Below are positions 11,301 through 37,301 of a stretch of 64,000 nucleotides of DNA, piece after piece. The notes beneath the pieces are model-generated. The model had not been told where the DNA came from. It saw only the letters and a program-made list of their open reading frames with translations, and did no database searches. Every line of letters begins with the position of its first letter. Positions within the stretch are counted from its first letter, which is position 1. Origin of the DNA: a virus; the IMG/VR virus record IMGVR_UViG_3300008267_012518; one strand, given 5' to 3'. The position numbers and the translations under genes are program-made.

Positions 11301-12453
11301 TCCAGTTTACGGTGTTCCACCACCACTTGACAATAATTGGAGAAGAATTTATAGTCTTGAACCAGATACCTCGTATTTTTATGGACCATCAATATCCAAT
11401 AATAATATTATTGAGATGAATGGTAAATATTATGAGTGTGTTGGGAATAATTTTAACGGTAGTTTATCTTCTGATACTTTAATAAATTATTCTATCGATA
11501 ATGGTATTTACATAGTAATCAATGAAAAATTCAAAAATGTTCTCATAAATATTTATGTGAATGACAATACTTATTCGGAAGTAAGTGAAATCTCACAAAG
11601 TGTGTGGGATGTGACAAGTAACAATGTCAAAAACACCAATAGGGATGATATTTACACTACTATATTTTCTAAGTTGTCCACGAATAATTTCATGAACTGT
11701 CTGAATGATTTGTCTAATAAATTTGGATTTAGTGACAACGTGAAATATGTTGTCGTGGGAGAAAGTGGTACAAAGTTGTATGATTTCAATAATCTAAAAT
11801 CAGTTGTAAATTTACCATATCTATTGACATGCTCTGGACCAGATGAGTTATTAGTAAGAACTCGTTCCAACATATATCAACCAATTACACTAAAGGGATC
11901 TGAAATTAAATCTAAAAGAATATTAAATGATTCGAATATAGAAAATTTATCCGAATTGAATTATTTTAATGAAATGCACTTAGCTTCCAAAATTTCAAAA
12001 AATGTTGAAAGTCCAATAATATTACCCAATTATAGTGGATTGAAAAATCAAATTTATTACAGACTTTATAGATTTTCAGGATACTATGGTCCAATTTTGA
12101 GAAACATAGAACTCTTTGACTCACCTAGTCTGACTCAAAGCGAAACAAATTATAGATTTGACACAGAATTAACGAATTTTGGCATCGTCAAGGAAAGAAT
12201 AGTTTCAAAGGTTAATAGGAAATCTAATTTATTGAGATTTGCTAATCAAACTAACTTAAAATCAATATATCCCATGATAGATGAATTTGGGTATCATACT
12301 GTTGATTATTTTATGTTTAAGTCTACTTGGGACCTTAATTATCACATTGAAACACAAGATTATGTTCCTGAATTACAGACAACACAATTAAAGCCAAATA
12401 ACCAAGATCTAAGTTCAAAGGAATTCAGAAATAATAACTCAAAATTACTATAA
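8398..12453 (+). CDS. Large putative virion (baseplate/tail) protein
   Basis: 1351 aa, beta-rich, start overlaps the previous stop; no enzyme motif seen. Confidence 0.55.
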   Translation: MKSSAILRTNVGLTTNVKLVVRSNYGLYLDSIVSSPELSENRFKKFQIDKDTFWEDIVPVFFQKTPVDLAYKIKYDGDVDKMSTDFTSQFDDLYQYGARNIVDNKFYSEEFEYFAPLYISKNSLPKNFIIFRVDGPGIINLTKDNFRSEILNKLKVVKNYDLTQKSYLGQWINNNITNNRFYPNNSLYIDFRRLEFSTWRGIDYEKGGYTEKNFLLDSTLEFELPYYEMEKLILEGYKNNKIVFPNIINFSFLFDDTPATPDSLRKWSLNRYLGFYLDEMKLVDSFSPNKLPTLKSDVKIDDENILSSPSSQSPFLNEWEVNDYPFIEVDGVYYRLEKFEQVTSSVIQRVQNTRNTYEERRASSNVIKYKVISDISLSGKSFSDINNKLIIINSDKTIGLQNGNTFMINDFGNADVWLIEIDNFLHHLVFEDGKYRILTDYGFRQSAERFDYYINGINSDTSKSVNLVTSKDYGPVEFKIYKCKFTDIKDFDTDIVDTTYSKYEYIKSETLTDTDEPKMYVQDLESTNQPKDYVQFKLQNKVVTIPTSSEYTANSETFRIEDNNLTQLWRKNSQRLKWGFGGSISSNDYPYLLNNSIISEDYNKSPNTKDVILQREKRNLDHFYTINSDSNQYSHHTLHIEDWSNDKLNIDFKFELDKYLGIGYNLDYFSYFFGKKTYFEEGKVSKRTEKFSYFQSGDGSTPNITLFKGLKFSISEIDNINIVDGKIEKINLRNSNKFESWRFSVLLSNNSHLIVGSDTDPTNPNVIKSETALKWRVIDEWKHDKDYFTNSLVLYEQTLYKNTVHSRIVDPIYNPKNTTDWQLYTNPTIFYSPLFDGTSTKNNMVGFGATIPPLIYNDGQYYFSNPFNSNDFWNSSFTYSDFDVVTYKNKNWVSLTSSNITIPSENSGINIGGEFFSTWEETGVSVRWNPVSIWKSDFEYDVSSWQQNSFGFGNYVIHDDVVYGSTSSPVYGVPPPLDNNWRRIYSLEPDTSYFYGPSISNNNIIEMNGKYYECVGNNFNGSLSSDTLINYSIDNGIYIVINEKFKNVLINIYVNDNTYSEVSEISQSVWDVTSNNVKNTNRDDIYTTIFSKLSTNNFMNCLNDLSNKFGFSDNVKYVVVGESGTKLYDFNNLKSVVNLPYLLTCSGPDELLVRTRSNIYQPITLKGSEIKSKRILNDSNIENLSELNYFNEMHLASKISKNVESPIILPNYSGLKNQIYYRLYRFSGYYGPILRNIELFDSPSLTQSETNYRFDTELTNFGIVKERIVSKVNRKSNLLRFANQTNLKSIYPMIDEFGYHTVDYFMFKSTWDLNYHIETQDYVPELQTTQLKPNNQDLSSKEFRNNNSKLL

Positions 12454-12456
12454 TAT

Positions 12457-13146
12457 ATGAGAAGAACTTTTATAAGTCCGGAATTCAAATATGTTTCTGT
12501 ATACGGAACACTAAATATGGAGGAAGAAAGTTCTTTTTTTGGATCCAAAATGCTCGAAATAGAAGATTTAATTACCATCGGTAATGAAAGTATATTATTC
12601 TATCAAAATGAAAAGGGGGAACAAATAGACTTTGAAAAGGAATATGATGCACCACCTATCATATATAATTCCAATGCAGACAAACAAAAATTACATACTT
12701 TGGTATTGGATGAATTTCAAACACAAATAGAAAAGAATAATTATACTAAATGGAAACTCACAATAAGTATACGGTCACTTTTGAAAAATTACCTATTCGC
12801 TACTTTAAAAAAATATAGAACTTTTGAGGGAGTATCCAATGAAATGACCTATAACAGAAATGTTGATTTTTCAATAAATGAGTATATACAGAGGAATGTA
12901 ATAAATAGGTACAAGTTTACAGGTGTGGATTTATATTTAGTACCCGTTGATTTATTGACTATAGGAAGCCTTAAATATCAGAATATTTGGGACCGAGAAA
13001 TCTCACAGGATCAATACAAATTTACAAAATTTTCTACAGTGACTGACTTCAAATTTGAAGACATACAAATTTTCTTTGCTCAAAATTTTTCAGCTAGTCA
13101 GTACGCGTTCAGATATTATTTCAATCTTAAATTTGAAAAATTATGA
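12457..13146 (+). CDS. Hypothetical protein, probably structural
   Basis: 229 aa ORF tightly packed in the structural operon. Confidence 0.55.
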   Translation: MRRTFISPEFKYVSVYGTLNMEEESSFFGSKMLEIEDLITIGNESILFYQNEKGEQIDFEKEYDAPPIIYNSNADKQKLHTLVLDEFQTQIEKNNYTKWKLTISIRSLLKNYLFATLKKYRTFEGVSNEMTYNRNVDFSINEYIQRNVINRYKFTGVDLYLVPVDLLTIGSLKYQNIWDREISQDQYKFTKFSTVTDFKFEDIQIFFAQNFSASQYAFRYYFNLKFEKL

Positions 13147-13544
13147 TGGAGAAGAAGGATTTATCTAAATATGAAAAAAACTTGGTTTGTTTTCTGAGAC
13201 TTTTTCAGAATAGACCTTTTCACTTGGCTAAATATTTATCAGATAATGATTGTTTTAGAGATGATTTCATAAAAAATATTACTGAAAGTAAAAAGTTAGG
13301 TGATTTAAGTCAAAAATACGATTTGGGTGAATTGCCAAATGTTTATTTTATGAACTTCAAGGAGATGTTAAAATTTTTTGAAAATATTTCACAAGATTAT
13401 AAGATAGAAGGTATGGATAATGAGAAAGTCCAAGAAGAACTTAATTCAAAATTAAATGAATTTATTAAATTGGAGAAGTACGAAGATGCGATTAAGATAA
13501 GAGATTTCATGATACAAAATAATATCAAAAGAAAAGAGTTTTAA
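13143..13544 (+). CDS. Protein with C-terminal UvrB/UvrC (UVR) motif
   Basis: C-terminal ELNSKLNEFIKLEKYEDAIKIRD fits the UVR helical hairpin. Confidence 0.65.
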   Translation: MMEKKDLSKYEKNLVCFLRLFQNRPFHLAKYLSDNDCFRDDFIKNITESKKLGDLSQKYDLGELPNVYFMNFKEMLKFFENISQDYKIEGMDNEKVQEELNSKLNEFIKLEKYEDAIKIRDFMIQNNIKRKEF

Positions 13545-13598
13545 TTATAAACTTGTTACTATTTTTATAATAAAAAAATAGTTTTAAACAAAAAAATT

Positions 13599-14684
13599 AT
13601 GGCAAAAAAAAATTATGGTGATCTCCGAACCTTACACGGAGACCTTTTCCAAAACACATCAAATGACATACAAACTGATAATGGTTTATTATCAAATGAT
13701 GAATTAAAAATGTTGTATGATCAATATGATGTAAATACCCCAACCATCGGAGAAGTTGTAAACGTGACTTATGTCGGATATTCCGCAGCTGGATATAATT
13801 TCGATGGTGGTTATAAAGATTTCGTCCGGGTTGAAGATAGACCCAATGAATCGAAATATCTTCAAAACATCGAAATTGGTGATAGTATAGATATTTTCAT
13901 AGTCAATATTGATGAGGATAACTACCACATCAGGGGTAGTCTTGTTGAACTTTATGAAAACAGAGCTAGAGAAATCCTCACCCAATTAGAAGAAGGCACT
14001 TCAGTTTTAGCTTATATTAAGGAAATGACACCAGCTGGATACAATGTCGACCTACATTTTGAGGGAGTGACTTTGGCTGGATTTATGCCAAACACACTAG
14101 CTGGTATAAATAAATTATATAATCCCGAATCAATTGTCAATACATCCTTTGAAGTAATGATTGAATCATATTCTAATGAGGAAGGTACCTACATCGTTAG
14201 TAGAAGAAAATACCTACAATCATTAATTCCAAATGCCATCAGGTCTTTGGAATCCGGTAAAATTTACCTCGGTAATGTCACTGGTACTACAGAATTTGGT
14301 GTTTTTGTAGAGTTTAACGAATGTTTGACTGGTATGATTCACAAAACAAATATGTCACCAGAGTGGTCAAATAAAATTAGTCAAATCACACCAGGATCGA
14401 GAATTGAATTTTATATAAAAGAGATTATTCGTGATAAAATTATTCTAACCCAAATATTAAGGGAAACCCTTTGGGACACAATAAAAATTGGTCAAACATT
14501 TGATGGTAAAATAAAAGATATAAAACCATTTGGAGCACTTATCAGTTTGGATGATGAAACGAATGGTCTAATACATACTTCTGAAATTGAAAAATCCAAT
14601 CAAAAGTTGACGGCTGGTAATACAGTAAAAGTAAAAGTGATTGCTGTCGATAGGATGAATAGAAAAATATTCCTTAGTCTATAA
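13599..14684 (+). CDS. rpsA: Ribosomal protein S1 homologue (about 4 S1 domains)
   Basis: Repeated OB-fold signatures (GxVxxxxxFGVFVE, GMIHKT, GKIKDIKPFGALISL...GLIHTSEI, VKVIAVD); N-terminal LxxLY helix. Confidence 0.88.
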   Translation: MAKKNYGDLRTLHGDLFQNTSNDIQTDNGLLSNDELKMLYDQYDVNTPTIGEVVNVTYVGYSAAGYNFDGGYKDFVRVEDRPNESKYLQNIEIGDSIDIFIVNIDEDNYHIRGSLVELYENRAREILTQLEEGTSVLAYIKEMTPAGYNVDLHFEGVTLAGFMPNTLAGINKLYNPESIVNTSFEVMIESYSNEEGTYIVSRRKYLQSLIPNAIRSLESGKIYLGNVTGTTEFGVFVEFNECLTGMIHKTNMSPEWSNKISQITPGSRIEFYIKEIIRDKIILTQILRETLWDTIKIGQTFDGKIKDIKPFGALISLDDETNGLIHTSEIEKSNQKLTAGNTVKVKVIAVDRMNRKIFLSL

Positions 14685-14685
14685 T

Positions 14686-14716
14686 AAAAAGGGGGGTCAT
14701 TGACCCCCCTTTTTTA
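14686..14716. terminator. Bidirectional intrinsic terminator
   Basis: AAAAAGGGGGGTC-ATT-GACCCCCCTTTTTT between the convergent S1 and 14714..15457 genes. Confidence 0.9.
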
Positions 14717-15457
14717 TTTCAATATTTGTAAGAATTCTTCAATGGTCAGACCAATTACGGATTCAAAGTCCTCACGAACTAATTTATACTGTTTCGCTGA
14801 TTTGGTGACTGCCCAATCTATAATATCCATTTGATTTCTGAATCTATCATTGGACGCGGATACAAGAAACTCAAGTAAGAGTTTTTTCTTATCATCATCT
14901 TCATAGTAGTCAATCTTTCTTTTGTGTTTATTTACTTTCTCGGTATTCGTTGCCTCATCAAATATTTCTTTTAATCCAATATCTCTTGTTTCTTGATTAG
15001 TACATCTTCTAAAATTCCAACTAGTGTACCAACGTTCAGATCCATCTAATTTTATTTTAATATCTGTCCAAGAAGTATAACCAGTTGAGGATTTGTGGTC
15101 ATTGAACTTAACCTCCTTAACTTTGTAAGTACGGCCTCGGATTAGTGTTTTGAGAGAATCATATAGTGGTATGACATAATCACCACTTTTCAATGTCTTA
15201 TCAATTTTAGTTTGCTCACGTTCATTGAGTAGAATTTGATAATCAGGACAGATCCAATTATTATTTGGGAAATCACCCCCATCCTCCATTGAAAAGTTTT
15301 GAAGTGGGAATGTTTGGATAGATCTATCGGTAAGATAAATTCTAATAATTGGTCTGAAGTATGGGGAACTTTTAGAATTTAAATTGTTGTAATTCGCAAT
15401 TTTATAGTCACCCCCCTTGACTAATTTTGATGTTGGTTTTATACAGATTGCCTTCAT
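14714..15457 (-). CDS. Hypothetical protein with two SH3/KOW-like segments
   Basis: Repeated KLVKGGDYKI / TLIRGRTYKV; TATATTTG (-7-like) on the minus strand at 15473-15480. Confidence 0.6.
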   Translation of the reverse strand: MKAICIKPTSKLVKGGDYKIANYNNLNSKSSPYFRPIIRIYLTDRSIQTFPLQNFSMEDGGDFPNNNWICPDYQILLNEREQTKIDKTLKSGDYVIPLYDSLKTLIRGRTYKVKEVKFNDHKSSTGYTSWTDIKIKLDGSERWYTSWNFRRCTNQETRDIGLKEIFDEATNTEKVNKHKRKIDYYEDDDKKKLLLEFLVSASNDRFRNQMDIIDWAVTKSAKQYKLVREDFESVIGLTIEEFLQILK

Positions 15458-15534
15458 ATCTTAAATTATATACAAATATAACAAATAAAATGAACAATAT
15501 ATATTTTTATAAATATAAATAAAAAAAAATTTTT

Positions 15535-15840
15535 ATGAAAACAGAAAAAATTTCTGCAGAGACAAAAGAAGAAACAGTGGGTTCAGTTTCCATGGAGCCA
15601 AACAATATACAAGTTGAACTCAGTGAAGAGGAGCAAGCAAGGATGGATGAGGTTAAGTCTCTAGTTGAGGCCGAGACCCTTGATCCTACCACATCCATGA
15701 ATATTTTAATAAATGCTGTTCAGTTAGCTTTTGATTCTGAAGTTTATAACGACTTAGACCGTTACTTAATTGCTAAGTCTCTGAATTGCTTCAAATCCCA
15801 CGTGGATAAGGGTGAGGATATTTTACTAAAAGTGGCTTAA
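15535..15840 (+). CDS. Hypothetical acidic protein
   Basis: 101 aa ORF with AATATATA upstream and an A-rich leader. Confidence 0.6.
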   Translation: MKTEKISAETKEETVGSVSMEPNNIQVELSEEEQARMDEVKSLVEAETLDPTTSMNILINAVQLAFDSEVYNDLDRYLIAKSLNCFKSHVDKGEDILLKVA

Positions 15841-16493
15841 TCCCATTCGATTTTATCGATGTCCGATGGATAGTGTGATTTTAAAACACTATCCATTTTT
15901 TTTGCCATAATTTTCTTATGTAGATTAAATACTTGGCTCTCGAGACCGACCACAACATCTGATTTGTGGTCCCCATTTTTATTATAATTGTTGATAACAA
16001 AGTCCGAATTACTATTTTTTACACTTTCATCCATTTCATTTGAAAGGATTTTTTCTATTAAACTTTTACTAAAAGATGTCAAATAACCCATATCGTACTT
16101 TCTTTGATATCTTGGTCTGTAACAAGATACATTGAAATTCATCAGATTATTCATACGGCGTTCAAAAATAAAGTCAAAATAAAATATTGTATAGAAATCA
16201 TTTTTGTGTTTAATTCTAAAAAGTTCATAGGATTTTAATATATCAAGTTCTATGATGTCAAATAGTTTATCGACTTTATCATTCGAATTCAACTTATTGA
16301 AATTAAGTAATCCAAGATTATAAATATCATCGCCGAATTCTGATTTAATTTTTCTAACGTGGTTTGGTGAGAAATTCAAAAGGAATTTTGTAACTAAATT
16401 TGCGTCAAAAACTGGTACATCAAAACCTTTTAAAATTTCAGAGACTTCGACTTGACCAGAATAATAATTTCCTGTGAGACCTACTTTGTACAT
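15837..16493 (-). CDS. Dephospho-CoA kinase (CoaE)-fold protein with degenerate P-loop
   Basis: MYKVGLTG...PVFDAN...SDFVINN follows the CoaE pattern, but Walker A reads GNYYSGQV rather than GxxGSGKS/T. Confidence 0.7.
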   Translation of the reverse strand: MYKVGLTGNYYSGQVEVSEILKGFDVPVFDANLVTKFLLNFSPNHVRKIKSEFGDDIYNLGLLNFNKLNSNDKVDKLFDIIELDILKSYELFRIKHKNDFYTIFYFDFIFERRMNNLMNFNVSCYRPRYQRKYDMGYLTSFSKSLIEKILSNEMDESVKNSNSDFVINNYNKNGDHKSDVVVGLESQVFNLHKKIMAKKMDSVLKSHYPSDIDKIEWD

Positions 16494-16499
16494 ATATTA

Positions 16500-16531
16500 C
16501 AAAAGTAAGTGATTTAGGTTTCATTTACAAA
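16500..16531 (-). promoter_or_regulatory. Bacteroidota-type primary-sigma promoter (CoaE-like gene)
   Basis: TTTG-N20-TACTTTTG; 6 nt to ATG. Confidence 0.75.
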
Positions 16532-16569
16532 CTTTAAAAAATATATATACTTTAAATCGAAAAATTTCC

Positions 16570-17043
16570 ATGAAAAGTAGTAAAATATTAGAATCTTATA
16601 GGAACGGTTATTTATTGAACGCGGAAGAACTTGATAAAGTACCCAGAGAATTTAAAATCGTTTTGATCGATTTTTTAAAAGAAAAGTATTTGGATAACAA
16701 TCTTAAGAATAAAAAAAGTATTGAAAAACTCTCCGACATTTTTGGAAAAAAGATCATAAATGAACACAACACTATGAAGGTTCCTTACTTTGACGTTCTC
16801 GAAAACATAAACCTGTGTATCGAAGTTGAAATGTCTGATCAGATTGTTGAAGAGGAGGGTTCACAAAAATTTGGAGAAACTAAATTTTCACAAATTTTAG
16901 AAAGTGGTATTTCAACTTCTAATCCGATAAATAGATTTGCAATATCTGAAAAAAGTTTCAAATCTTCGTTGGAAGATTTTATTTCTATTTACACTAATGA
17001 ATTTGAAGTTGTGGGAGATTCTATTAAAATAGAATTCAATTAA
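16570..17043 (+). CDS. Hypothetical protein
   Basis: 157 aa, AATATATA upstream, 1 nt from the M16 peptidase start. Confidence 0.6.
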   Translation: MKSSKILESYRNGYLLNAEELDKVPREFKIVLIDFLKEKYLDNNLKNKKSIEKLSDIFGKKIINEHNTMKVPYFDVLENINLCIEVEMSDQIVEEEGSQKFGETKFSQILESGISTSNPINRFAISEKSFKSSLEDFISIYTNEFEVVGDSIKIEFN

Positions 17044-17044
17044 C

Positions 17045-18151
17045 ATGATAATAAATCTCAAAAGTCAAACCGATTTATCTGGTTTTTATGTGGTTTTTTA
17101 TGGTTCAACGAACTTTGAAGAAAGGGGTATTTATGGTATTTCACATTTGATGGAACACCTTATTTGTAAAAATTTTGAACATTTGAGGGATGATTTTGAA
17201 AAAGAGGGTATTGAATGGAATGCCTACACAACTCAAAATGAAATTGTTTTTTATTTCACCGGATTGGATGAATACTTAATGAAACAAAAATATGAATTAG
17301 TTGAGTTGATTACTGATTTCAAAGTTTCGAAAGAACAATTTGAGAATGAGAGAAAGATTATACTACAAGAATATAAAAACCATTTTTCGGATCAATCAAA
17401 CTGCCATTTATCAAATCTGAGTAGAAAGTTATATAAAGATTATGACGCAATCGGTCTCAAAGAAGATCTCGAAACAATTAGATATATGGATTGTCTTAAT
17501 TTCTTTGAAAAACAATTCAAAAATCCATCGAAAATAATAAATGTTTCGAAAGGCCAACCCTTCAAAATTGATGTTGAGTTTTCTAATTCAGAGATCGATA
17601 AAAAATTTGAATTTGGTCCGTATAAAGATGTTATTTTGGAACCCACTCGAAATTATGGAGATAAGGTATCAATATGTTTAACATCCAAAACAATTGAGGA
17701 TGATTTCAGTTATGTAATTTTCATCAACAATATGTTGACACTTGGTCTATCTTCACCTTTTTACTCGGAGATAAGAGAAAAGAGGGGTTTGGTCTATCAT
17801 ATAGGGTGTCATCAATCAAGGATGAACGATCAAGGTGTGAATATTATAAGTACTGAAACATCTAATAAGAATGTTGAATTACTTATCGACAGTTTCAAGG
17901 ATGTGATGAAAAATCCTGATAAATTTATTTCAAAGAAACGTTTTGATTTAGTTAGAAGGTCTTATCTTATTAAATTCCAAAAAGATAAAATTAATAGATT
18001 TCAGAATATAAATAATTGGATTAATCCCACAGACTGGTCAGTCAAAGAAATAATCAAGACCATCAACTATGATAAAGTTATGGATGTCTATGATAAGTAT
18101 TTTAAATTTGATGATTTTTATATATCTAACGATAGAACAGAATTTAATTAG
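17045..18151 (+). CDS. M16 (insulinase/MPP-like) zinc peptidase
   Basis: Inverted zinc motif GISHLMEH, NAYT, downstream E in EQFENERKIILQE, C-domain EIREKRGLVY. Confidence 0.9.
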   Translation: MIINLKSQTDLSGFYVVFYGSTNFEERGIYGISHLMEHLICKNFEHLRDDFEKEGIEWNAYTTQNEIVFYFTGLDEYLMKQKYELVELITDFKVSKEQFENERKIILQEYKNHFSDQSNCHLSNLSRKLYKDYDAIGLKEDLETIRYMDCLNFFEKQFKNPSKIINVSKGQPFKIDVEFSNSEIDKKFEFGPYKDVILEPTRNYGDKVSICLTSKTIEDDFSYVIFINNMLTLGLSSPFYSEIREKRGLVYHIGCHQSRMNDQGVNIISTETSNKNVELLIDSFKDVMKNPDKFISKKRFDLVRRSYLIKFQKDKINRFQNINNWINPTDWSVKEIIKTINYDKVMDVYDKYFKFDDFYISNDRTEFN

Positions 18152-18199
18152 AATGATTGGTTAATTAATATATAAGTCAATAATTGTTTTTAATAATTA

Positions 18200-21100
18200 A
18201 TGGCTGTATTACAAAGATCTGTTTCTAATATTTCTTCTTCAAATCCACAACCGGTAGTTGGTCAGGTTTTGGTATCTTCTCAAATTCCTAACACGACTTT
18301 CTACTCATCTAGATTGGTAAATTATGTCGAGTCTATTGAGGTTGATGGTGTAATGAAGACTGCTTTTTTTTCTGAAGTTAATACCAATCTTAATGTTGGG
18401 GACAGAGTTTTTATTGTTAATGGGAATTATGATTCAGGATCCCTTATTAAAGATAACAAATACAAAAAATTTTCCGATGGGTACAGAGTACTTGCAATTA
18501 ACGGTTGTCGAGTAGTGCTCGACGTTGATTATACTGGTCTTTTACCATCCGTTGATTACACAAGTAAAAATTTTATTTATGTTCATGTGGTTACAAGTCA
18601 AAAAGATTTTGATTATGTGAATTCATTGTCAACGTCTTTGGATGGGACTCCCTTTATCAAAAGTGTGTTCAGTGGGAATATAGTTGATGGGGATTTGGTA
18701 CTGGAGTGTCAAAACATACTTTACACAAATGGTTCATTCCAAGGTAATCAAACAATCTCAGGCAATTATGGTAAAGTTAGTTCTGAGGGATTTTGGGTAA
18801 GAGTTGATGATGGTGTAAATAATGATTGGATTGATATTTCATATTATGTCCTGTCGAATAGGATTATTCAAAATCCAATATTTTCTGGTTCTGGTAAATT
18901 GAATATACTTGGTGCGGATTTCTCGTATGATGGTTCAATTTTCGAAAAGGGTGGTATCTATAAATATGATAACTATGAGTGGATTATAAGTAATGAAGAT
19001 TATCCATCTTATATTTCAAAACTCAATTTTAGGTCTGGTAAATTTAGAGGTGTTCATAATGATGGGATTTATGGTTCTTATAAGAATAAGTTAGATTGGA
19101 GTAAATCCGTTTGGAATTCTGGCGTTCTATTGAATGCAAACTGGAAGGATGGATACATGAATTCAAAACATACAGTAGAAGAAACATCCTTCCTGTGTGG
19201 TCTTCAAAAAGTCGGTAGTGTTGAGACGATTGTTCAATCCTTTGATAATACCGATAATCGTGGGTTTGGTTATAATTTTATAGAAAATTCTAATTTTTTC
19301 ACATATTCTATTGGTAATGGTAATTTTTTCAATTGTACATTTCTTACTCAGAGTCAAATGAAGTCAGCTTTGGATATTTACTACGGACTGGACACACCTT
19401 ACCTGAGTGTATCCAATGGTGGTAGATATGAATTCTGTGATATTTATGATTTGAGAGGTAATAACAGTGTTTTTGTAAACAGTTCGATTAGAAACTCAAA
19501 CTTATTAAGATCGAAAATCGTTAGCTCCGAAACAATAAACACATCGATAGAAAAGAGTAATTGGTCTTCTGATGGTGGAATAAAAATTATTGGGGCTGAT
19601 TTATGGGGATATGACCATGGGCAAAATGCTGTTTTATCTGGTACACAGGCTAGTATTTTTGGTACAATAAAACTTTATATCTCAGAGGAGGACTACTTTA
19701 AATTAAGCAAGGGAGATACTTTTTATATTTCGAAATTAAATAAAGAATTCATAAATAATATAATCGACGATGAAAACAAAATATTAAATATACTAGAAAA
19801 TAGATATTTGATAGAAAACTACGACGACCATGATATATCCTCGGGTAACCTATCCAAAATGTTTGTCTCATTGAAGAGTACGCAAGAAAATCTTTATAGG
19901 AGTTATATCAAAACTTCAAATACTACTGTAAATTATTACAAATATTCAATAAATGACACCGATACTTCAGCTTGGTATAAAATTCCAGCAGCGTTTGCTT
20001 TTTCTTCTACATACGCTCAAAATATCGGTTATATCCTAGGTGACTTTGTTTTTGTTGGTGACCCGATGGATATAAATAAAACTCTTTTTTTCCAATATTG
20101 GCCAGTTAATAAAGGTGATGTAGCCGACGGTAGAGTGGGGTCAAGAGCATTTCTAGGTGATTTTTCAAAAGCGGAACAGTATGGTGAAAATTGGAAGCAA
20201 TATGGTCCTTTGGATTCTAATGTTCCGTATTCTGGTGATTGGTTACAGGTTGGTATTTATAATGGTTATATTTTATCTGCCACCATGGCGATATGGGATC
20301 CAAGTACGTCTTATTTTGGTTTTACCAATCAAGAGATACTACTAACTCCTAATAGTAATTATTCACCTGCATATCCATACGGAGATATAATAAGAGATAA
20401 TGATATTGATAATAACTATTATATATTTGTCGGATATGATATCGGATTGACGAATTCATCTAAACAAATACTCACTTCTGTAGATTACTTAAGTCAAAAT
20501 ACGGTAACCTATTCAAACTTCAATTATCCATCAATCGACATATCATCAAACATATTTGGTTGGTATGAAAATATTGATGGTGAATTGGTTGGTACTTCTC
20601 GAAATAGAATATCTCCAATAGACGTTACAAATATTAATAATCTTTTTAAGGATACAATTCTAGTAAATGGTGATTTCAAAAGTGGTGTGATGTCAGATTC
20701 AAGTTGGGTAAGTGGTGACCATACAAACAACTATAGTAATGTAATTCAAAAAATAGCAAACCAACCACTCGATATAAAATTAGATACCTATTTATCCAAA
20801 AAGATTTTGGTATTGACACTTATAAATAAAAATTTATCATCTTTTGATCTTGAAGGGTATGATTATCGAGTTGGTGATTATGTCTGGTTGAAATCAATTA
20901 ATTACACAGAATTTACAGGAGCTACTGTGAGTTCAGTTTCTGGTCGATATAAAATAGTTAGATTTTTTCCCCTCAACTCAGAAGTGTGGTTAGAAAACTT
21001 AGACACTGTGAATAAAATTTCAAATTTAAATAGTGGTGGTACATTTTTTATCAATTCCGGTGATACTAATAATTACTTGTCTATACACAAAACAAATTTT

Positions 21101-23320
21101 GTTGACAGTAAAATAGTTTCAGGTAAATTTAAAAGGTCGGGTATAGAAAACTGTAAAATCGAAAATGAAAATTTCAAAAAGTATGTTTATCCAGCTAGTG
21201 ATTTGAAAAATACAGAACTTCTTAGATTAGTAAATATTATGTTCCAAGATACAAAAAATACCATAAAAAGTGGTTTAGTATACAAATCTCATTTTGTTAA
21301 TGATATTTTTGATGGGGGTAATTTTTATAATTCAATTTGGTTAGGTGGAACATTTTCAGATGGTCTCTTCAAATCAAGTGTTTGGACTGGTGGTAATTTC
21401 AATGGTGGAAAATTTGTCGACAGTAGAGAATCAACAGTTTTTACATTTGATTTCGATGTAACATCAAATATTAAACTTTGGCAAGGTGGTAATTTCAACG
21501 GTGGTGAATTTTATAATTCATTGTGGGTGCGGGGTAATTTCAATGGTGGTAGATTTTATTTTTCGGATTGGACAGGTGGAACTTGGAACAATGGTGTTTT
21601 GGGCAGTAAAAACATAAGAACTAGGGATACTACTATGGCTTATTTTGGACCAACCACATCATTTGGAGCGACCCACACAGTTTGGTATAATGGACTAGTT
21701 GAGAATGCTACTGTTGGGGGGTTTGGTTCAATAGATTGGTACGGCGGTAAAATGAGTGGTGGTGAATTTACAAGTGAGGGTAGGAATAGTTCCAATTATT
21801 CTATATGGCATGGTGGTGATTTCTACAGTAGTGCATTTACCAAACAAGCTTGGTGGTTGACAGGAAACTTTTACAGTGGTAAATTTCTAAGCGAGATCGG
21901 ATGGGATCAAGTTTCTTTATTATCACATCCAAGTGCGACTTTCAGTTATGGGTGGGTTAGTGGTAATTTATACGGAGGAGAGTTTGGTAATGGTTCAACA
22001 GGAACAAATTCAGTATGGTATGATGGTATAATGCATGGTGGTGTTTTTCAGGGTAAATTTTGGAGAGATGGTCTAGCGATCAATGGTAAATTTTATGGAA
22101 GTTTGGTAACACAGAGTGACATAAGTCAGTCTCTCCTATCTTATACTCAGAGTTTTTACGGAATTTGGAATAATGGGTACGTTGATAATATTATTTACAA
22201 TGTTAAAAAGGATAGATTAGTGACGACTGAAGACTTAGAAGTCAGTTCCAAAAAAATTAAACCCACCCTCAAGATGTTTGATATGTATAATGTGGTTTGG
22301 ATAAAGGGAACATTCTCGCATGAGCTTTCAACTTTCAACAATTCAGTTTGGTTGAGTGGAGAATTCAATTCTGGAAATTTTAATGATTCATACTTTAATC
22401 CTTACGTCGATCTCACGCTTGCCGGAGCTAATATAGAAGACTATGTCAGGTTTGAATACACGAAGATGATCTATGATTACGTAGATACTTTATTAAATGA
22501 TCAAGATTTTGTATTCGAAACAACGACATTCTTTTTACAAAGAATTATTGATTTCAAAAATACGTTGAATAACGATCCTATTATTAAGGGAGAATTTATT
22601 GTTGAATTTGCATTTTTCGATGGTCAAGTATCACCATATCCTCCCAATTACGGTGATATAGACTTTCCAGAATCTGATTATAATAATTTTTCAGCAAATG
22701 ATTTGAATAGTACAGTGGTTGTTCGAATTTATGAACCAAAAATATTTGTTAGATTTCCTAATGAATATGTCGGCATAACTCTTTTCAGACCACAGTCACC
22801 GGCACCGCCGGGTCCTGGTACGCCAATACCATCACTGATCTATACATATTTATATCCGAATTTACAGAATTCTGGTACTTTACCCTATTCATTCAACACT
22901 AATGAAGTTTGTATTTGGAAAGGTGGTAATTTTAACGGAGGTGAATTCAATTATTCAAAATGGTTGGGTGGAAACTTCAATAATGGTGTTATTAACGGAT
23001 CAATTTGGTTAGATGGTGTTTTCAACTATGGTGAAATGAACAACTGCTATTGGGAAAATGGAACTTGGAGAAATGGTAATTGGAACGGTAGTCCCTTCGA
23101 TTATACAAAATTAAAATTTGACACCAGTTCGAGCCTTTGGATCGTAGATGATAAAAAAACTGATCAGATCTTGAAAAATATTTATAATTATACCTCGAAT
23201 ACAAATTTACATTTGTCAAACGTAATCACAAAAGAACCGACTACTACAGAAGTAGTTCATACTTTTGATGCGTCTGACTTTGTTAGATGGAAAGTGGATA
23301 CAGAAAACTCAACACAATAA
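18200..23320 (+). CDS. Giant virion protein with G-x-(W/F)-x-x repeats
   Basis: 1706 aa; long runs such as GGNFYNSIWLGGTFSDGLFKSSVWTGGNFNGGKF; AATATATA upstream. Confidence 0.65.
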   Translation: MAVLQRSVSNISSSNPQPVVGQVLVSSQIPNTTFYSSRLVNYVESIEVDGVMKTAFFSEVNTNLNVGDRVFIVNGNYDSGSLIKDNKYKKFSDGYRVLAINGCRVVLDVDYTGLLPSVDYTSKNFIYVHVVTSQKDFDYVNSLSTSLDGTPFIKSVFSGNIVDGDLVLECQNILYTNGSFQGNQTISGNYGKVSSEGFWVRVDDGVNNDWIDISYYVLSNRIIQNPIFSGSGKLNILGADFSYDGSIFEKGGIYKYDNYEWIISNEDYPSYISKLNFRSGKFRGVHNDGIYGSYKNKLDWSKSVWNSGVLLNANWKDGYMNSKHTVEETSFLCGLQKVGSVETIVQSFDNTDNRGFGYNFIENSNFFTYSIGNGNFFNCTFLTQSQMKSALDIYYGLDTPYLSVSNGGRYEFCDIYDLRGNNSVFVNSSIRNSNLLRSKIVSSETINTSIEKSNWSSDGGIKIIGADLWGYDHGQNAVLSGTQASIFGTIKLYISEEDYFKLSKGDTFYISKLNKEFINNIIDDENKILNILENRYLIENYDDHDISSGNLSKMFVSLKSTQENLYRSYIKTSNTTVNYYKYSINDTDTSAWYKIPAAFAFSSTYAQNIGYILGDFVFVGDPMDINKTLFFQYWPVNKGDVADGRVGSRAFLGDFSKAEQYGENWKQYGPLDSNVPYSGDWLQVGIYNGYILSATMAIWDPSTSYFGFTNQEILLTPNSNYSPAYPYGDIIRDNDIDNNYYIFVGYDIGLTNSSKQILTSVDYLSQNTVTYSNFNYPSIDISSNIFGWYENIDGELVGTSRNRISPIDVTNINNLFKDTILVNGDFKSGVMSDSSWVSGDHTNNYSNVIQKIANQPLDIKLDTYLSKKILVLTLINKNLSSFDLEGYDYRVGDYVWLKSINYTEFTGATVSSVSGRYKIVRFFPLNSEVWLENLDTVNKISNLNSGGTFFINSGDTNNYLSIHKTNFVDSKIVSGKFKRSGIENCKIENENFKKYVYPASDLKNTELLRLVNIMFQDTKNTIKSGLVYKSHFVNDIFDGGNFYNSIWLGGTFSDGLFKSSVWTGGNFNGGKFVDSRESTVFTFDFDVTSNIKLWQGGNFNGGEFYNSLWVRGNFNGGRFYFSDWTGGTWNNGVLGSKNIRTRDTTMAYFGPTTSFGATHTVWYNGLVENATVGGFGSIDWYGGKMSGGEFTSEGRNSSNYSIWHGGDFYSSAFTKQAWWLTGNFYSGKFLSEIGWDQVSLLSHPSATFSYGWVSGNLYGGEFGNGSTGTNSVWYDGIMHGGVFQGKFWRDGLAINGKFYGSLVTQSDISQSLLSYTQSFYGIWNNGYVDNIIYNVKKDRLVTTEDLEVSSKKIKPTLKMFDMYNVVWIKGTFSHELSTFNNSVWLSGEFNSGNFNDSYFNPYVDLTLAGANIEDYVRFEYTKMIYDYVDTLLNDQDFVFETTTFFLQRIIDFKNTLNNDPIIKGEFIVEFAFFDGQVSPYPPNYGDIDFPESDYNNFSANDLNSTVVVRIYEPKIFVRFPNEYVGITLFRPQSPAPPGPGTPIPSLIYTYLYPNLQNSGTLPYSFNTNEVCIWKGGNFNGGEFNYSKWLGGNFNNGVINGSIWLDGVFNYGEMNNCYWENGTWRNGNWNGSPFDYTKLKFDTSSSLWIVDDKKTDQILKNIYNYTSNTNLHLSNVITKEPTTTEVVHTFDASDFVRWKVDTENSTQ

Positions 23321-23321
23321 C

Positions 23322-26216
23322 ATGGCAGAAATGGAATCATCATCGAACACATCAAATCAACCAACTGAGAGTTTGATAAGTACATTCAAAGCTTCTCCAG
23401 GTGGACCAGGACAAGGAGCTCAAGGTTCACCCGATTGGGTTTTGGGTGAAGAAGATCTGCTAGACTCAGACCTGAATAATTTCAGTAGACCACACTTTTA
23501 TAATTATGGTGTATTTGGTTCATATAAAATATTTCTATGTAATAACTTTGGGTCCAAAGATATATTTACCAATTTTCAGAAAGGATATAAGATAGACATA
23601 ACTTTAACCGCTAGGGAGTTCTTTAATGGGGTTTCAAACACATCTTATGGGGGATTCATCGACGTTGAATTCAATATGGGACATCTACCCCCTATCATTA
23701 AAAAGTTAAAGGTAACCGGATATGATAAATTTGTCAAATTTACATTTTTTCATCAACCGACAGATTTTGACCTAAGAAAAACCAATGGTAAAAATTTTTG
23801 GATCAGGAAGCTCACTCCTGGTAAACTGAAGATAATAGATTCTAGAGTTGAATTGACTGTTGTGTCATATGATAATATTTTAAATAATACATTATATAAT
23901 AGTTATGATACAAATTATGGATATTTCACAATACCATTTTATAGTGACAGTAGAGAAATAATTACCAATTTGGGAAATAAAATAGGTGGTGAAACCTCTA
24001 TAAAATTTGGAAATGGTCAATTTAAACAGGGTATTTGGAAAACTGGAGTTTGGAACGATGGGTGGAGGGCTCCTTGGGGTATCGAAGATATATTTTATTT
24101 TGAAAAAATAAATAGTAATACTTTTCAACTATCACCAAATATGTGGATGTTGAAGCTCGATTGCAATACGAATATAGAAAATGTAATTAACATTAGTGAC
24201 AATTTAAAAGTTAATGACTTTATTTCTATGGGTAATGTTGTTGGTATAGATATAAATGAGGAGAGGTATCTATTGAAAGATTATTATAGAATTTCTTCAA
24301 TTGAAACTTCTGGTGCTGTTATCACTCTCACAGTCGAGATACCCATCGCTAAATTTCCCCTTCGAAGATTTGAAATTGATTCCAACTCACATTTGATATA
24401 TGTTACAAAAAATATTTGGTTAGGTGGAACGTTTTTGAACGGATTATTCAGAGGTGTTTGGAATTATGGTTTATTTAAGGGGTTTCCTTTTACTACTGTA
24501 ATGAAAGATTCACATTTTGTTGACGGTATATTCGATGGTGGTCGATTCATATCATCTGTTGGTAGTATAACATCAAGTACCTCGGACGTGAAGACATACC
24601 AAACTGGACTAGTACAATTTTTTGAATTTTATGACAATAATATTTCGGAAACAGAGGGTTTCAGTGATTACATAGACAACACCTACCAATCTTGGATCGA
24701 TGTAAACTATTCGACACAATCATTTGTAAATTTGAATAGTTTGACTAGTATCTATGATGACAACTTTGGTAAAAAGGTACCGATACCAAATTTATATGGA
24801 TATCCAACAAATGATATTTTATCGAGTTACTCGAAATTCAAAAATACAAATGATACGGATGTTGATTTTTATAACCTCGGAACAAAGTATAAAGTGTTTA
24901 CAGATTACTTAGGTGATAATGGATATTTTAGAAAAGCTTTCAATAGTGAGGGCAGACCAGGAATTGATGAATTTAGAGGTGCTGGGTGGACTGCAAACAC
25001 TGGTAATTTTTATGGTACACCTACTGTGAGTTTCATATACAATTCAAATCTTACAAGAAGAAATGTAAATAGGTTTTCCATAATTCTAGCAACGTTTGGA
25101 TATAATGTACTTAATAATGATAATATCAGAGCTGAGGACAAAAAATATTCTATAGTAGAATATGATATGGAATACTTTCAAAGGGGATGGAATGAAGATG
25201 CACAGCAGTTCACAAATACCTTCTCAAAACCTCTCAATCTTTTGGGTAGTAATTATCCATCTACTACGAACATTTTCAAGAGTGGTCTTCTCAAAACCGA
25301 ATACTTCTTCAATAAAAATGCGCTGGATTTGATTCTCAGATATAATTCTGAATTTATTCCACCTTCTGATAGTATTGCAATGTACGGATTCAATTATACA
25401 CATTCTTTAAGCTCACCAACAGGTGAAGTAAGTGGTAGTTATTCCACAACCTACTCTTTCTTGATGCCACAGACGGCTGATGCATTCATAGGAACCGATG
25501 TTGTACCAGAGTTTTTCCTAGAAGATGTTCTCGCTGGTAATGTGACGTATAATAAGTATGATATTGTAAGAAGAGCTACAGGAGATGCATTTGGTCCATA
25601 TTTTATTTCACTAGTTGATAATAATCAATCTCCGTTAGCTGACACCACTGCTTGGGCTAAGACAGTAGTTGGATTTAACAATCCAGTCAAGGAAAATACA
25701 ATTTTCGAACAATCTGAAGTATTTGATTACTTCACATCGGTCAGAATTAATTATTTTAAGTTTCTCGAAGTTGACTCGATTCCATTTTTCAAGTATTGGG
25801 ATTATGAAATAAACTTTTCATCCACGTTCAAAGATGGTAATAGTAATAAATTGTCACTCGAATTCGCTAAACCACATGGATTGAAAACTGGTGACTTCAT
25901 AAGTATAAAACTAGATGAGACTAAATTCAATCCAGATTATGAACAAAGTAATATAAGAGTTGGTCTTGTCCAAGATGGTCCTGTTCGAATTAGGGGTCGA
26001 GCTGGGGATGTTGCTTACACTGTGAAACTAGACTTTCCTTATGGGAACACTGTTTCCTATTTGTCTGAGTCAGGTACGGTGACGAAAGATGGAAATAGAA
26101 TCGATAAAAGAATACAAACAAATTATTACGCTAGTGCTCCGAAAGTGGACGGACTAGATGAGAATTTCATTTATTTAGGAAATAATCAGATATTTGTAGA
26201 TAGAGACGCTTTTTGA
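23322..26216 (+). CDS. Virion protein with G-x-(W/F)-x-x repeats (paralog)
   Basis: GQFKQGIWKTGVWNDGW and WLGGTFLNGLFRGVWNYGLF; the ATG at 23322, 1 nt after the upstream stop, is preferred over 23265. Confidence 0.65.
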   Translation: MAEMESSSNTSNQPTESLISTFKASPGGPGQGAQGSPDWVLGEEDLLDSDLNNFSRPHFYNYGVFGSYKIFLCNNFGSKDIFTNFQKGYKIDITLTAREFFNGVSNTSYGGFIDVEFNMGHLPPIIKKLKVTGYDKFVKFTFFHQPTDFDLRKTNGKNFWIRKLTPGKLKIIDSRVELTVVSYDNILNNTLYNSYDTNYGYFTIPFYSDSREIITNLGNKIGGETSIKFGNGQFKQGIWKTGVWNDGWRAPWGIEDIFYFEKINSNTFQLSPNMWMLKLDCNTNIENVINISDNLKVNDFISMGNVVGIDINEERYLLKDYYRISSIETSGAVITLTVEIPIAKFPLRRFEIDSNSHLIYVTKNIWLGGTFLNGLFRGVWNYGLFKGFPFTTVMKDSHFVDGIFDGGRFISSVGSITSSTSDVKTYQTGLVQFFEFYDNNISETEGFSDYIDNTYQSWIDVNYSTQSFVNLNSLTSIYDDNFGKKVPIPNLYGYPTNDILSSYSKFKNTNDTDVDFYNLGTKYKVFTDYLGDNGYFRKAFNSEGRPGIDEFRGAGWTANTGNFYGTPTVSFIYNSNLTRRNVNRFSIILATFGYNVLNNDNIRAEDKKYSIVEYDMEYFQRGWNEDAQQFTNTFSKPLNLLGSNYPSTTNIFKSGLLKTEYFFNKNALDLILRYNSEFIPPSDSIAMYGFNYTHSLSSPTGEVSGSYSTTYSFLMPQTADAFIGTDVVPEFFLEDVLAGNVTYNKYDIVRRATGDAFGPYFISLVDNNQSPLADTTAWAKTVVGFNNPVKENTIFEQSEVFDYFTSVRINYFKFLEVDSIPFFKYWDYEINFSSTFKDGNSNKLSLEFAKPHGLKTGDFISIKLDETKFNPDYEQSNIRVGLVQDGPVRIRGRAGDVAYTVKLDFPYGNTVSYLSESGTVTKDGNRIDKRIQTNYYASAPKVDGLDENFIYLGNNQIFVDRDAF

Positions 26217-26217
26217 T

Positions 26218-26937
26218 TTATTTTTTTACTAACCACAAGTGACCAACCATTCCCATTTGGAATTTGTCAAAGTGTCCCATGGATTCAACTTTGTGGGATT
26301 TCTCATTTTTTGGAAATTTGATACCGGTTAATTTTTGTTTTCCGTAAATTCTTTTATCTCCATTACAGGTTTTACAAGGTGACCATCCAACCTGACCCTC
26401 TCCGTTACAGATCGTACAAGTTTTTCCAAATGGGTCTTTACCACTACCCTCACAAAAATCACATCCATCAGAACCATCAAATAGTTTCAATATATTTCCG
26501 AATTCATCTTTGATTTCTATTTTTGATTTTGTGTCCTTACCATTCCCCTTACAATCTTTACAGACAACCCATCTATCATATTCTATACTTCCATCAAAGC
26601 GATCATCGATTTTCAACAAAATATTCAAATCATTCTGATTCCATTGGCTTTCGAATTTCTCATTGTCGTAAGCAACATTTAGATTTTCATACTCATTACT
26701 CAATAGTTCTTTAGTTTCGTCATATGAGTTTCCAAACCTACTTCTGACATCATATTGTTTTCTAGTTTCATCAACTAATACATCATACGATTCGGTAATT
26801 TCGGCAAATAATATGGGGTCACCTCCTTTATCCGGATGGTGTGTGAATGAAAGCTTGTAATAGGCTTTCTTAATTTCTTTTTCTGATGATGTATTTGGAA
26901 CACCTAAAATTCCGTAATAATTCTTATTGAAGTTCAT
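26218..26937 (-). CDS. dnaJ: DnaJ-like co-chaperone (J domain plus zinc finger)
   Basis: J domain with HPD; CKDCKGNG, CDFCEGSG, CTICNGEG, CKTCNGDK; no G/F region; short C-terminus. Confidence 0.9.
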   Translation of the reverse strand: MNFNKNYYGILGVPNTSSEKEIKKAYYKLSFTHHPDKGGDPILFAEITESYDVLVDETRKQYDVRSRFGNSYDETKELLSNEYENLNVAYDNEKFESQWNQNDLNILLKIDDRFDGSIEYDRWVVCKDCKGNGKDTKSKIEIKDEFGNILKLFDGSDGCDFCEGSGKDPFGKTCTICNGEGQVGWSPCKTCNGDKRIYGKQKLTGIKFPKNEKSHKVESMGHFDKFQMGMVGHLWLVKK

Positions 26938-27118
26938 CTAGTTTACTTTGTCGCCACTTAGCTTTTTTAATTTCATTTCTCCTTTCAACAGATGGTTTTG
27001 TGAACTCCTTTCTGCGTCTCAGTTCCTTAGTAATTCCAATTTTATCAAACTTACGTTTGAACTTTTTCAAAGCTTTTTCAAGTCCATCTTTACCGCCTTG
27101 TACTTCAATTATAATCAT
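26924..27118 (-). CDS. rpsU: Ribosomal protein bS21, Bacteroidota type
   Basis: LEKALKKFKRKFDKIG...LRRRKEFTKPSVERR pattern; MIII start as in Bacteroidota S21. Confidence 0.95.
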   Translation of the reverse strand: MIIIEVQGGKDGLEKALKKFKRKFDKIGITKELRRRKEFTKPSVERRNEIKKAKWRQSKLDELQ

Positions 27119-27435
27119 TTGTCTTCAATTAATTTTTTTAGTTTCAAGTCTCTGATAAAACCTTTCTTTTCTTCTTTGGTCATTTCAGTAAACCTTTTAT
27201 AATCCATATCAATTCCCATAAATTGATAGAATATATCTATATATTCGATAATATCTGAATTCATAAAAACCCCATCACTCCAAGATATCGTATTATTCCC
27301 AGTAGTGAGGGTGGTTCCGCTAGTTACTGATGGATAAACATATCCTCCACTACCTGTAGTTGTCCCCCAATAATGTCCAATATTACTATTCAGTGAAACT
27401 GCGGGTAAGGTTGTTTTTAATTTTTTGATAGCCAC
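27115..27435 (-). CDS. Hypothetical protein (G/T/S-rich N-terminus, C-terminal RDxKL motif)
   Basis: ATGA overlap with rpsU; ends FIRDLKLKKLIEDK. Confidence 0.7.
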   Translation of the reverse strand: MAIKKLKTTLPAVSLNSNIGHYWGTTTGSGGYVYPSVTSGTTLTTGNNTISWSDGVFMNSDIIEYIDIFYQFMGIDMDYKRFTEMTKEEKKGFIRDLKLKKLIEDK

Positions 27436-27444
27436 ATAATTACA

Positions 27445-27696
27445 TTATTTTTTATCATGACAATACTCATGTTCACAAGATTTGTGTCTACATTTATATC
27501 CAGCCCAAATTGTTGGAACTAAACAACAAATGATGTGGTATTTGAATCCATAGAGTATCATGAGACCAAACCAACCCCAAGTCATCATTTTGAAATCAAA
27601 CCAAAAATATTGATTAAGAATGTATTCTAAAATTTCTGTCAGTATAAAACTGATTACAAATATCAGTATAAATTTTAGAATTATTTTTGATTTCAT
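27445..27696 (-). CDS. Small membrane protein with Cys/His tail (holin candidate)
   Basis: 2-3 hydrophobic segments; tail CRHKSCEHEYCHDKK; about 600 nt from the lysozyme. Confidence 0.5.
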   Translation of the reverse strand: MKSKIILKFILIFVISFILTEILEYILNQYFWFDFKMMTWGWFGLMILYGFKYHIICCLVPTIWAGYKCRHKSCEHEYCHDKK

Positions 27697-27725
27697 AATC
27701 TTTATATCGAATAAAGGATTATAGT

Positions 27726-28283
27726 TTAAATCTTATCAATACAAGCCTTAACAGCCTCTGGTGTTAATCCCATAATCCCATACTCAGAATGAAATGCACC
27801 TTCCTCAATTAACATCATAAAATCTTGACTAGACCATTCATCAGTAACACCGCTATCAGTAAAAGTTATCTTATACCTGTCCTCTAACTCATAATCAAAC
27901 CCACGACGCAGATGTGTAAATTGTTGGAAAACATGAGTATATTTATATTCAATACTTATGGGTATCTGATCTATCTCTAACTCGTCAATCTCTGGACCTT
28001 CTCCTAAATCATCCATCTTAGAAACCCAAAAGGTAGGAAAATCACAATGCCAAATTTTTCCCTTTCTATTAATTTGGTTGATAAAATTATTTATATTGAT
28101 CAAATTATCCTCCGAAAACTTATTGTAATCCTTGAAGTTTATATCTTTTATTTCAACAAAAATGTCGTGTTCATTTTTATATTCTTCGATTGTATCGAAG
28201 ATTTTATCCATCCTTATTTGTAATAATCTATCATACTCCTGTGATGAAGAGTACTCATTGATAGTAGTATAAATTCTTTTCAT
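27726..28283 (-). CDS. Hypothetical protein, putative internal head protein
   Basis: MKRIYTTINEY leader; AATATATA 6 nt upstream. Confidence 0.55.
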   Translation of the reverse strand: MKRIYTTINEYSSSQEYDRLLQIRMDKIFDTIEEYKNEHDIFVEIKDINFKDYNKFSEDNLININNFINQINRKGKIWHCDFPTFWVSKMDDLGEGPEIDELEIDQIPISIEYKYTHVFQQFTHLRRGFDYELEDRYKITFTDSGVTDEWSSQDFMMLIEEGAFHSEYGIMGLTPEAVKACIDKI

Positions 28284-28302
28284 TCGTGATATATATTAAT
28301 AA

Positions 28303-37300: not shown

Positions 37301-37301
37301 C

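Follow-up and report, generated by a model that had tools for sequence, protein, structure and literature searches.

Phage-encoded homologues of ribosomal proteins bS1 and bS21 as candidate spare parts of a Bacteroidota ribosome

Huge phages of the Mahaphage clade, including the Lak phages, encode a putative ribosomal protein S1 (rpS1; LR745206, LR756502, LR756501 and MK250015-29), which Al-Shayeb et al. 2020, in the portion of that paper available here (PMC7162821), tie to genomes with rare Shine–Dalgarno (SD) sequences and propose as a substitute for the host protein. In freshwater Bacteroidota myophages of clades a–e, Chen et al. 2022 (PMC9723584) describe bS21 and propose that its expression is late-associated. 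Both genes occur in the stretch analysed here (64,000 nucleotides, referred to as the window), the last 64 kb of a linear virus record of 178 kb and 32% GC (IMG/VR IMGVR_UViG_3300008267_012518). Its S1 belongs to the same protein family as the Mahaphage rpS1, and its bS21, like that of the myophages, is Bacteroidia-type with an aromatic residue at position 54. The two genes are as follows.

13599..14684, plus strand: bS1-derived protein of 361 aa, with an N-terminal helix and oligonucleotide/oligosaccharide-binding (OB) domains 1–4
26924..27118, minus strand: bS21 of 64 aa, Bacteroidia-type, with Trp55 and no SD; its start overlaps the upstream stop (ATGA)

Phage S1, phage S21 and the idea of substitution are already published (PMC9723584 and the available portion of PMC7162821). 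Our additions to the cited literature are modest, comprising residue-level support for reading the huge-phage S1 as a true bS1, a separate middle-like S1 promoter, a late bS21 promoter concealed within an ORF, the variant with Trp and the statistical association of leaderless-type starts with bS21; set against the same portion of Al-Shayeb et al., the residue-level docking check, the promoter assignment and the count of S21 co-occurrence are found only in the present analysis. Whether phage ribosomal proteins sustain ribosomes or change mRNA choice is a question that this S1/bS21 family makes concretely testable. The host proteins of Flavobacterium johnsoniae (PMC9976891, PMC13000457 and, as far as its available text goes, PMC7797042) share with the phage pair the domain order, the uS2 contacts, the aromatic position that stacks on the anti-SD and the SD-less context, and differ in having six S1 domains, as in Gram-negative hosts generally, rather than four, an intact first anchor helix and an autoregulatory SD before rpsU. 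For bS1 and bS21 of this bacterium there are genetic tools, cryo-EM structures and initiation assays with purified components, the key residues of the phage proteins being S1 Y40/K73 and bS21 W55.

Our preferred reading, to which we assign a probability of about 0.55, is that the phage, beginning in the replication phase and free of host feedback, adds its own copies of two 30S platform proteins that can be exchanged, and so sustains SD-less initiation during a long infection. Middle-like promoters would start synthesis of both proteins in the replication phase, probably through a phage extracytoplasmic function (ECF) sigma factor, and supply would continue late, for S1 by read-through and for bS21 from late promoters. 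Both would then exchange into host 30S subunits, an entry that is likely because both keep ribosome-docking features. Within the subunit, phage bS21 would hold the anti-SD in its pocket and steady bS1, which would recruit leadered A-rich mRNA, and the missing SD would free phage bS21 from the SD-based rpsU autoregulation known in Flavobacteriales. Any preference for phage mRNA would be owed mostly to how abundant that mRNA is, and tuning would be modest at most.

Phage S1 is 61% identical to its counterpart in LR745206 (634 kb), 55% to that in LR756502, 44% to that in LR756501 (735 kb) and 34% to those of Prevotella Lak phages, and relatives in IMG/VR reach 676 kb; judged by these identities and genome sizes, the record is a fragment of a Mahaphage/Lak-like jumbo phage. 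The host appears to be a Bacteroidota bacterium, because every bacterial genome matching phage bS21 (80/80) has Bacteroidota taxonomy and the Bacteroidota promoter pattern TTG-N18-21-TAnnTTTG lies upstream of 16 genes, compared with 0.5 in shuffles. Sugar cassettes of lipopolysaccharide type and chaperones in the genome are shared with the phages of Chen et al. (PMC9723584).

The sequence-only reading had taken the plus-strand gene at 13599-14684 for an S1 of roughly four domains, and this holds, the protein being collinear with bS1 domains 1–4. A profile built from 66 homologues gives a single continuous match to residues 19-345 of Escherichia coli bS1 and 33-370 of F. johnsoniae bS1, the predicted structure consists of an N-terminal helix (residues 33-42) followed by four OB folds, and the top Foldseek match of this model is bS1 on the 30S subunit (E 1e-20). 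The score against the full-length family TIGR00717 (106 bits) lies below the cut-off of 577, as do those of 14 genuine Bacteroidota bS1 proteins (387-567 bits). The shorter domain set has a precedent in E. coli, which is viable without bS1 domains 5-6 and in which domains 1-3 keep 30S binding (PMC3858243).

In E. coli, bS1 contacts uS2 through F5, F9 and K43, the last entering the uS2 zinc pocket (PMC10123108). These residues align with L36, Y40 and K73 of phage S1. Across the 66 homologues K73 never varies and Y40 is conserved to at least 90%, and lysine occupies the K73 position in 27/29 phage and 23/23 bacterial rows. A complex prediction combining S1 residues 1-130 with F. johnsoniae uS2 scored 0.22 (mark, 0.32) and is not used as evidence either way. 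Aromatic and histidine positions of OB3 and OB4, which we take to be RNA-binding sites, are kept as F233, F236, H248, F311 and H326, apart from the change F293 to L. The protein, as its sequence and model indicate, is bS1-derived and probably able to dock on the 30S subunit.

In the S1 tree, phage sequences form one clade (support 100/100), which a distance of about 4 substitutions per site separates from every bacterial bS1, pointing to an old acquisition; owing to this long branch, the tree does not name a donor. The same branch would suit a protein whose main work lies outside the ribosome, where it would act as RNA chaperone or cofactor in the way that host S1 serves T4 RegB or Qbeta replicase, with bS21 as an unrelated accessory. 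The erosion of the first anchor helix in this subclade would also be in keeping with such a role, for which extra-ribosomal phage functions of S1 summarised in PMC13157829 give precedents, and Al-Shayeb et al. note, in the available portion of PMC7162821, that a 'true' rpS1 is hard to confirm. Set against this, uS2 docking is the only known use of the invariant K73, the conserved Y40 and the helix predicted at 33-42, and we regard the off-ribosome role as distinctly improbable.

The assignment of the minus-strand gene at 26924-27118 to bS21 is borne out by PF01165 and TIGR00030 (48 bits against cut-offs of 27 and 29). Among solved structures the protein is nearest that of F. johnsoniae (PDB 7JIL, 51 bits, compared with 29 for E. 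coli), and W55 does align with Tyr54 of that structure, an alignment that had been proposed. At this position 48 of 92 close bS21 homologues have Trp and 42 Tyr, whereas Chen et al. report Tyr, His and Phe (PMC9723584). Two other phage bS21 sequences (L136 and L129, from G052 and G032) have Arg or His there, so the aromatic rule has at least one exception in this clade. The reported lack of an SD is likewise confirmed, the anti-SD duplex being -1.7 kcal/mol as compared with -21 for Flavobacterium rpsU. The protein is ~58-60% identical to Bacteroidota proteins; in the bS21 tree 14/15 phage rows cluster (Shimodaira–Hasegawa-like approximate likelihood-ratio support, 93), and from so short an alignment the number of origins cannot be fixed. 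A tblastn search found no bS21 match among GenBank phages, probably reflecting a limit of sensitivity at 64 aa.

Gene upstream regions are enriched in three mostly non-overlapping motifs: that of host type; AATATATA (43 genes, compared with 4.4 in shuffles), the copy of which at 5167 had been singled out and is thereby shown to be genuine; and AAACWW-N14-16-ATATAA (8 compared with 0.4). Timing was assigned from the content of the genes sharing each motif. We refer to the AATATATA type as late because in G001, a near-complete relative, (A/T)ATATATA stands before the genes for the major capsid protein and the portal, and to the third class as middle-like because replication-type genes follow it both here (GreA, Dam, 5'-3' exonuclease, deoxyhypusine synthase and an RpoD-like sigma) and in G001 (clamp loader, helicase, ribonucleotide reductase and an SbcD-like nuclease). 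A T4 late box, TATAAATA, at 5171 was considered and set aside, as it shows no enrichment upstream of genes (8 compared with 4.5), and a generic sigma-70 scan found fewer sites than in shuffles. The phage carries two sigma genes.

2516..3130, minus strand: phage sigma factor of ECF type, which may read the middle-like class and has the same motif upstream at 3180-3206
G000 29465-30193: second, RpoD-like sigma, under the middle-like class

The ECF sigma gene is present in all near-complete relatives searched, often ~10 kb from S1, and the middle-like motif (AAACTT-N14-ATATAAA) lies upstream of it and of several orthologues. An ECF sigma gene under its own promoter class is the pattern expected of an autoregulated ECF regulon. 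Together the two sigmas make a candidate three-step sigma cascade, similar to that of SPO1, in which host sigma acts early and phage sigmas act in the middle and late phases (PMC13401047, as far as its available text goes); the likeness lies in three promoter-like classes and two phage sigma genes, with the difference that classes here were assigned from sequence alone. A literature search found no report of an AAACTT promoter in Bacteroidetes.

Around S1 these classes are distributed as follows.

5167..5174, plus strand: late-class motif AATATATA heading the 5195-13544 genes, with read-through into S1 possible
5195..13544, plus strand: four syntenic genes upstream of S1 (1067, 1351, 229 and 133 aa)
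13549..13576, plus strand: S1's own middle-like promoter element (AAACTT 13549-54, N15, weak -10 ATAAAAA 13570-76)
14686..14716, both strands: bidirectional intrinsic terminator downstream of S1 (stem 14691-14708)

S1 does, as had been described, close the run of co-oriented genes at 5195-14684, and a strong hairpin terminator working in both directions comes after it; similar hairpins follow S1 in 8/9 relatives shown, and its gene neighbourhood is kept in the relatives inspected. The description of this region as a virion operon finds no such backing, as no protein upstream of S1 has a structural-protein match. An assignment of the 5195-13544 genes as virion proteins found no support, with no Pfam match, one unknown PHROG and an Atlas lead of 0.78 (tail fibre family) that falls below 0.9. 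The 133-aa product of the last gene before S1 carries a weak UVR motif, and the 229-aa protein (12457-13146, plus strand) has 950 homologues and a confidently predicted fold (predicted template modelling score 0.77), for which a fold search gave no structural match above Z 3.7.

Nor is S1 merely the tail of a late operon, given its own middle-like element. This element is weak in this genome (p 0.039) and conserved in relatives, where the middle-like -35 hexamer occurs in 49/65 distinct S1 leaders as compared with 13 expected, and the late motif in 1/65, fewer than the 8.4 expected by chance. Read-through from 5167 into S1 is possible because only one weak hairpin (7734) intervenes. Many S1 leaders (L033-L112) also contain (T/G)TAAC and, after it, runs of T and of A some 20 nt ahead of the ATG, possibly a strong-leader or autoregulatory element. 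Close to S1 there is further an L7/L12-domain gene, three genes away in a 658-kb relative (L024:13626-14102), and partial L12 matches lie close to S1 in G002, G014 and G017.

The bS21 locus has a different arrangement.

28290..28297, minus strand: late-class motif before a 185-aa gene, with read-through to bS21 possible
27701..27727, minus strand: middle-like promoter element (AAACTA 27727-22, N14, ATATAAA 27707-01), containing GATATAAA and heading the unit of 83-aa ORF, 106-aa ORF, bS21 and DnaJ
27115..27696, minus strand: two small open reading frames (ORFs; 83 aa and 106 aa) upstream of bS21, with no family match
27238..27245, minus strand: hidden late-class motif AATATATA within the coding part of the 106-aa ORF, with ~120 nt between it and the start of bS21
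26218..26937, minus strand: DnaJ-like co-chaperone overlapping the bS21 stop

The GATATAAA at 27701-27708, which had been read as the late-type signal of this unit, is present but belongs to another class: it forms the -10 box of a two-part middle-like element, AAACTA-N14-ATATAAA, which none of 1000 shuffles equals in score (0/1000) and which also precedes the orthologous 85-aa gene in two relatives. Late-type input to bS21 nevertheless stands, through the hidden AATATATA at 27238-27245 and through the late motif found within 45 nt in 6/15 related bS21 leaders. Three features fit the hidden motif (27245-27238) as a working late promoter for bS21, on small numbers: the late motif is depleted in coding DNA (3 compared with 13.6 expected; in G001, 7 compared with 44), this copy is retained in the three genomes with the 106-aa ORF immediately ahead of bS21, and G001, whose bS21 carries a late motif of its own, has lost it through a synonymous change. 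Judged by their motifs, then, both genes lie behind middle-like promoter elements, and bS21 lies additionally behind late-class motifs.

Neighbours and promoter of bS21 differ among relatives. In clades a–e of Chen et al. the gene is antisense within a terminase–portal–capsid module, whereas here it sits beside DnaJ and small ORFs; gp23 was not found on this fragment, and in the relative G001 the capsid gene is >100 kb from bS21. The curated genomes of Chen et al. carry no other ribosomal protein genes (PMC9723584), in contrast to the S1 present here. The ORF at 27115-27435 (minus strand) ends in RDLKLKKLIEDK, and tails resembling R-D-x-K-I-x-x-I are encoded directly upstream of bS21 in several relatives.

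Co-occurrence was counted among S1 carriers at least 90% complete (n=12), with a hidden Markov model re-check covering parts of genomes. bS21 is present in 7/12 (two near-identical) and was not detected in 5/12, and the S1 tree requires 5 changes of the bS21-presence label, some at incomplete records. Other translation genes are similarly patchy (IF3 in 4/12, L7/L12-like matches in 4/12, IF1 in 1/12). The sequence-only reading had S1 and bS21 under shared late control as parts of a single system. The first claim finds no support in the promoters, the conserved S1 promoter being middle-like and the late motif occurring in 1/65 S1 as compared with 6/15 bS21 leaders; nor is the second supported, since S1 occurs without bS21 in 5/12 carriers, 12 kb separate the two genes, which lie on opposite strands, and one tree is much deeper than the other. 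The best reading of these data is that S1 is probably an old phage-only lineage and bS21 a patchy accessory, separately acquired and separately regulated. With different histories and promoters, the two look like spare ribosome parts and not like one late switch.

Patchiness of bS21, IF3 and IF1 would also fit turnover under conflict, and a counter-defence role has been raised by Chen et al. (PMC9723584). Phage copies would then replace host proteins removed or modified by defence or, in a related scheme, phage bS21 would fill bS21-free ribosomes and so shut off SD-dependent translation of host rpsU. The latter suits the SD-less phage rpsU and the finding that in F. johnsoniae it is ribosomes lacking bS21 that drive translation of rpsU (PMC9976891). 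On the other hand, no defence target or protease link was found, and the SD feedback loop may not exist in the host, because the most similar host bS21 genes (Saprospiraceae and Crocinitomicaceae) mostly lack an rpsU SD; we consider either form unlikely.

Host leaders were represented by a small sample, 193 genes of two Bacteroidota genomes. Pairing at SD level is seen in 1.0-1.8% of phage starts and in 0-1.3% of those in the two genomes, and mean A content at -20..-1 is 0.46-0.48 in phages compared with 0.40-0.41. Ribosomes of Bacteroidia are blind to SD sequences in any case and make use of adenines upstream of the start (PMC13000457), so phage leaders look adapted to the host system. The proposal that a swap of both proteins favours the phage's A-rich, SD-less leaders is therefore not supported by this sample: in the two genomes, host leaders lack SDs to the same degree and come close to phage leaders in A content, and a swap would discriminate little. 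In F. johnsoniae bS21 and bS1 cooperate on SD-less mRNA (PMC13000457, PMC9976891), bS1 stimulating SD-less initiation only with intact bS21 (PMC13000457), which provides a reason for carrying both genes.

Leaderless-type starts are common, as about 40-55% of the promoter motifs of each class end <=9 nt from the ATG. The suggested link of S1 to leaderless mRNAs is not supported, because such mRNAs can do without bS1 (PMC9031893) and E. coli mutant ribosomes favouring a leaderless mRNA lack uS2, bS1 and bS21 (PMC10491246).

Several observations weigh against plain supply. In near-complete genomes, late-class leaderless-type starts per 100 kb above control have a median of 13.8 in bS21 carriers and 7.8 in non-carriers (nominal p 0.002), and host-class starts one of 1.3 compared with 0.3 (nominal p 0.015). 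This association is a matter of degree, as non-carriers have such starts too, and both kinship and host confound it; plain supply leaves it unexplained. S1 carries the phage-specific changes K117 to P and F293 to L. The F[DN]W anchor helix of Bacteroidota, which in F. johnsoniae touches uS8 at the N terminus of bS1 (PMC13000457) and is visible in Lak-like and other deep phage S1 members, is eroded to GDLF in this protein. Strong conservation among phages at a great distance from host bS1, together with these changes and the eroded helix, suggests specialisation more than simple replacement. W55 of bS21 is also derived, its position being Y in 69/73 host proteins and W in 0/73, and the timing of S1 and bS21 expression is read from motif sharing among genes.

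The overall proposal of the sequence-only reading was coordinated reprogramming, in which phage S1 and bS21 build specialised ribosomes that prefer phage mRNAs with short A-rich leaders or leaderless starts over host mRNAs. Of its parts, the kept docking features, the late input to bS21 and the richness of bS21 carriers in leaderless-type starts stand, whereas shared late control, a single system, leader selection and the S1–leaderless link are not supported. The contact of bS1 with bS21 at the mRNA exit (PMC10123108), a middle-like promoter class common to both genes here, phage-specific substitutions in both proteins and an A/T content of phage leaders somewhat above that of host leaders (0.83 compared with 0.75) would agree with it. 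It is opposed by hosts that are SD-blind already (PMC7797042, as far as its available text goes), by the dispensability of bS1 for leaderless mRNA, and by the 5/12 near-complete S1 carriers without detectable bS21, which retain late leaderless-type starts (10.9/100 kb in G035). Moreover, the compared genomes are related and not independent, so host differences could explain the gap, and genes with host promoters and leaderless starts would be read ahead of phage bS21 synthesis. Reprogramming in this form seems quite unlikely. A narrower version, in which the ECF sigma of one Mahaphage-like branch co-switches a specialised S1 and a Trp55 bS21 to give a hybrid 30S platform altering mRNA choice, and in which bS21 enabled the shift of many genes to leaderless starts, would be a long shot; if true, it would mean virus-made specialised ribosomes in an SD-blind host. 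Topping up of the 30S platform remains the reading we prefer.

An earlier comparison of leaderless starts on partial genomes (22% compared with 3-12%) was discarded, as the first 200 kb of G035 are rich in such genes and the gap was overstated; the whole-genome counts replace it. Across the window and 21 related genomes, leaderless-type starts at the host promoter TATCTTTG exceed control only in bS21 carriers (78 compared with 22; in non-carriers, 32 compared with 30), a puzzling excess in early genes read before phage bS21 is made.

Further features of the window comprise one transcription factor gene and two tRNA genes.

36093-36563: GreA, with the middle-like promoter class upstream
37225-37301: tRNA-Arg(TCT)
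37654-37725: tRNA-Cys(GCA)

Outside this set, a candidate NusG-like ORF, resembling NusG by eye, lies at G000 41346-41873, and a RuBisCO-like gene (G000 76498-77727; L116:16498-17727) and a deoxyhypusine synthase-like gene (G000 110101-111072; L118:10101-11072) lie behind the middle-like promoter class. Many ORFs share N termini of the type MK(H/N)(L/I)KxFxxF...E, for example those at 40656-42041, 42056-42688 and 52763-52963 of the window, and are mostly preceded by late motifs near the ATG.

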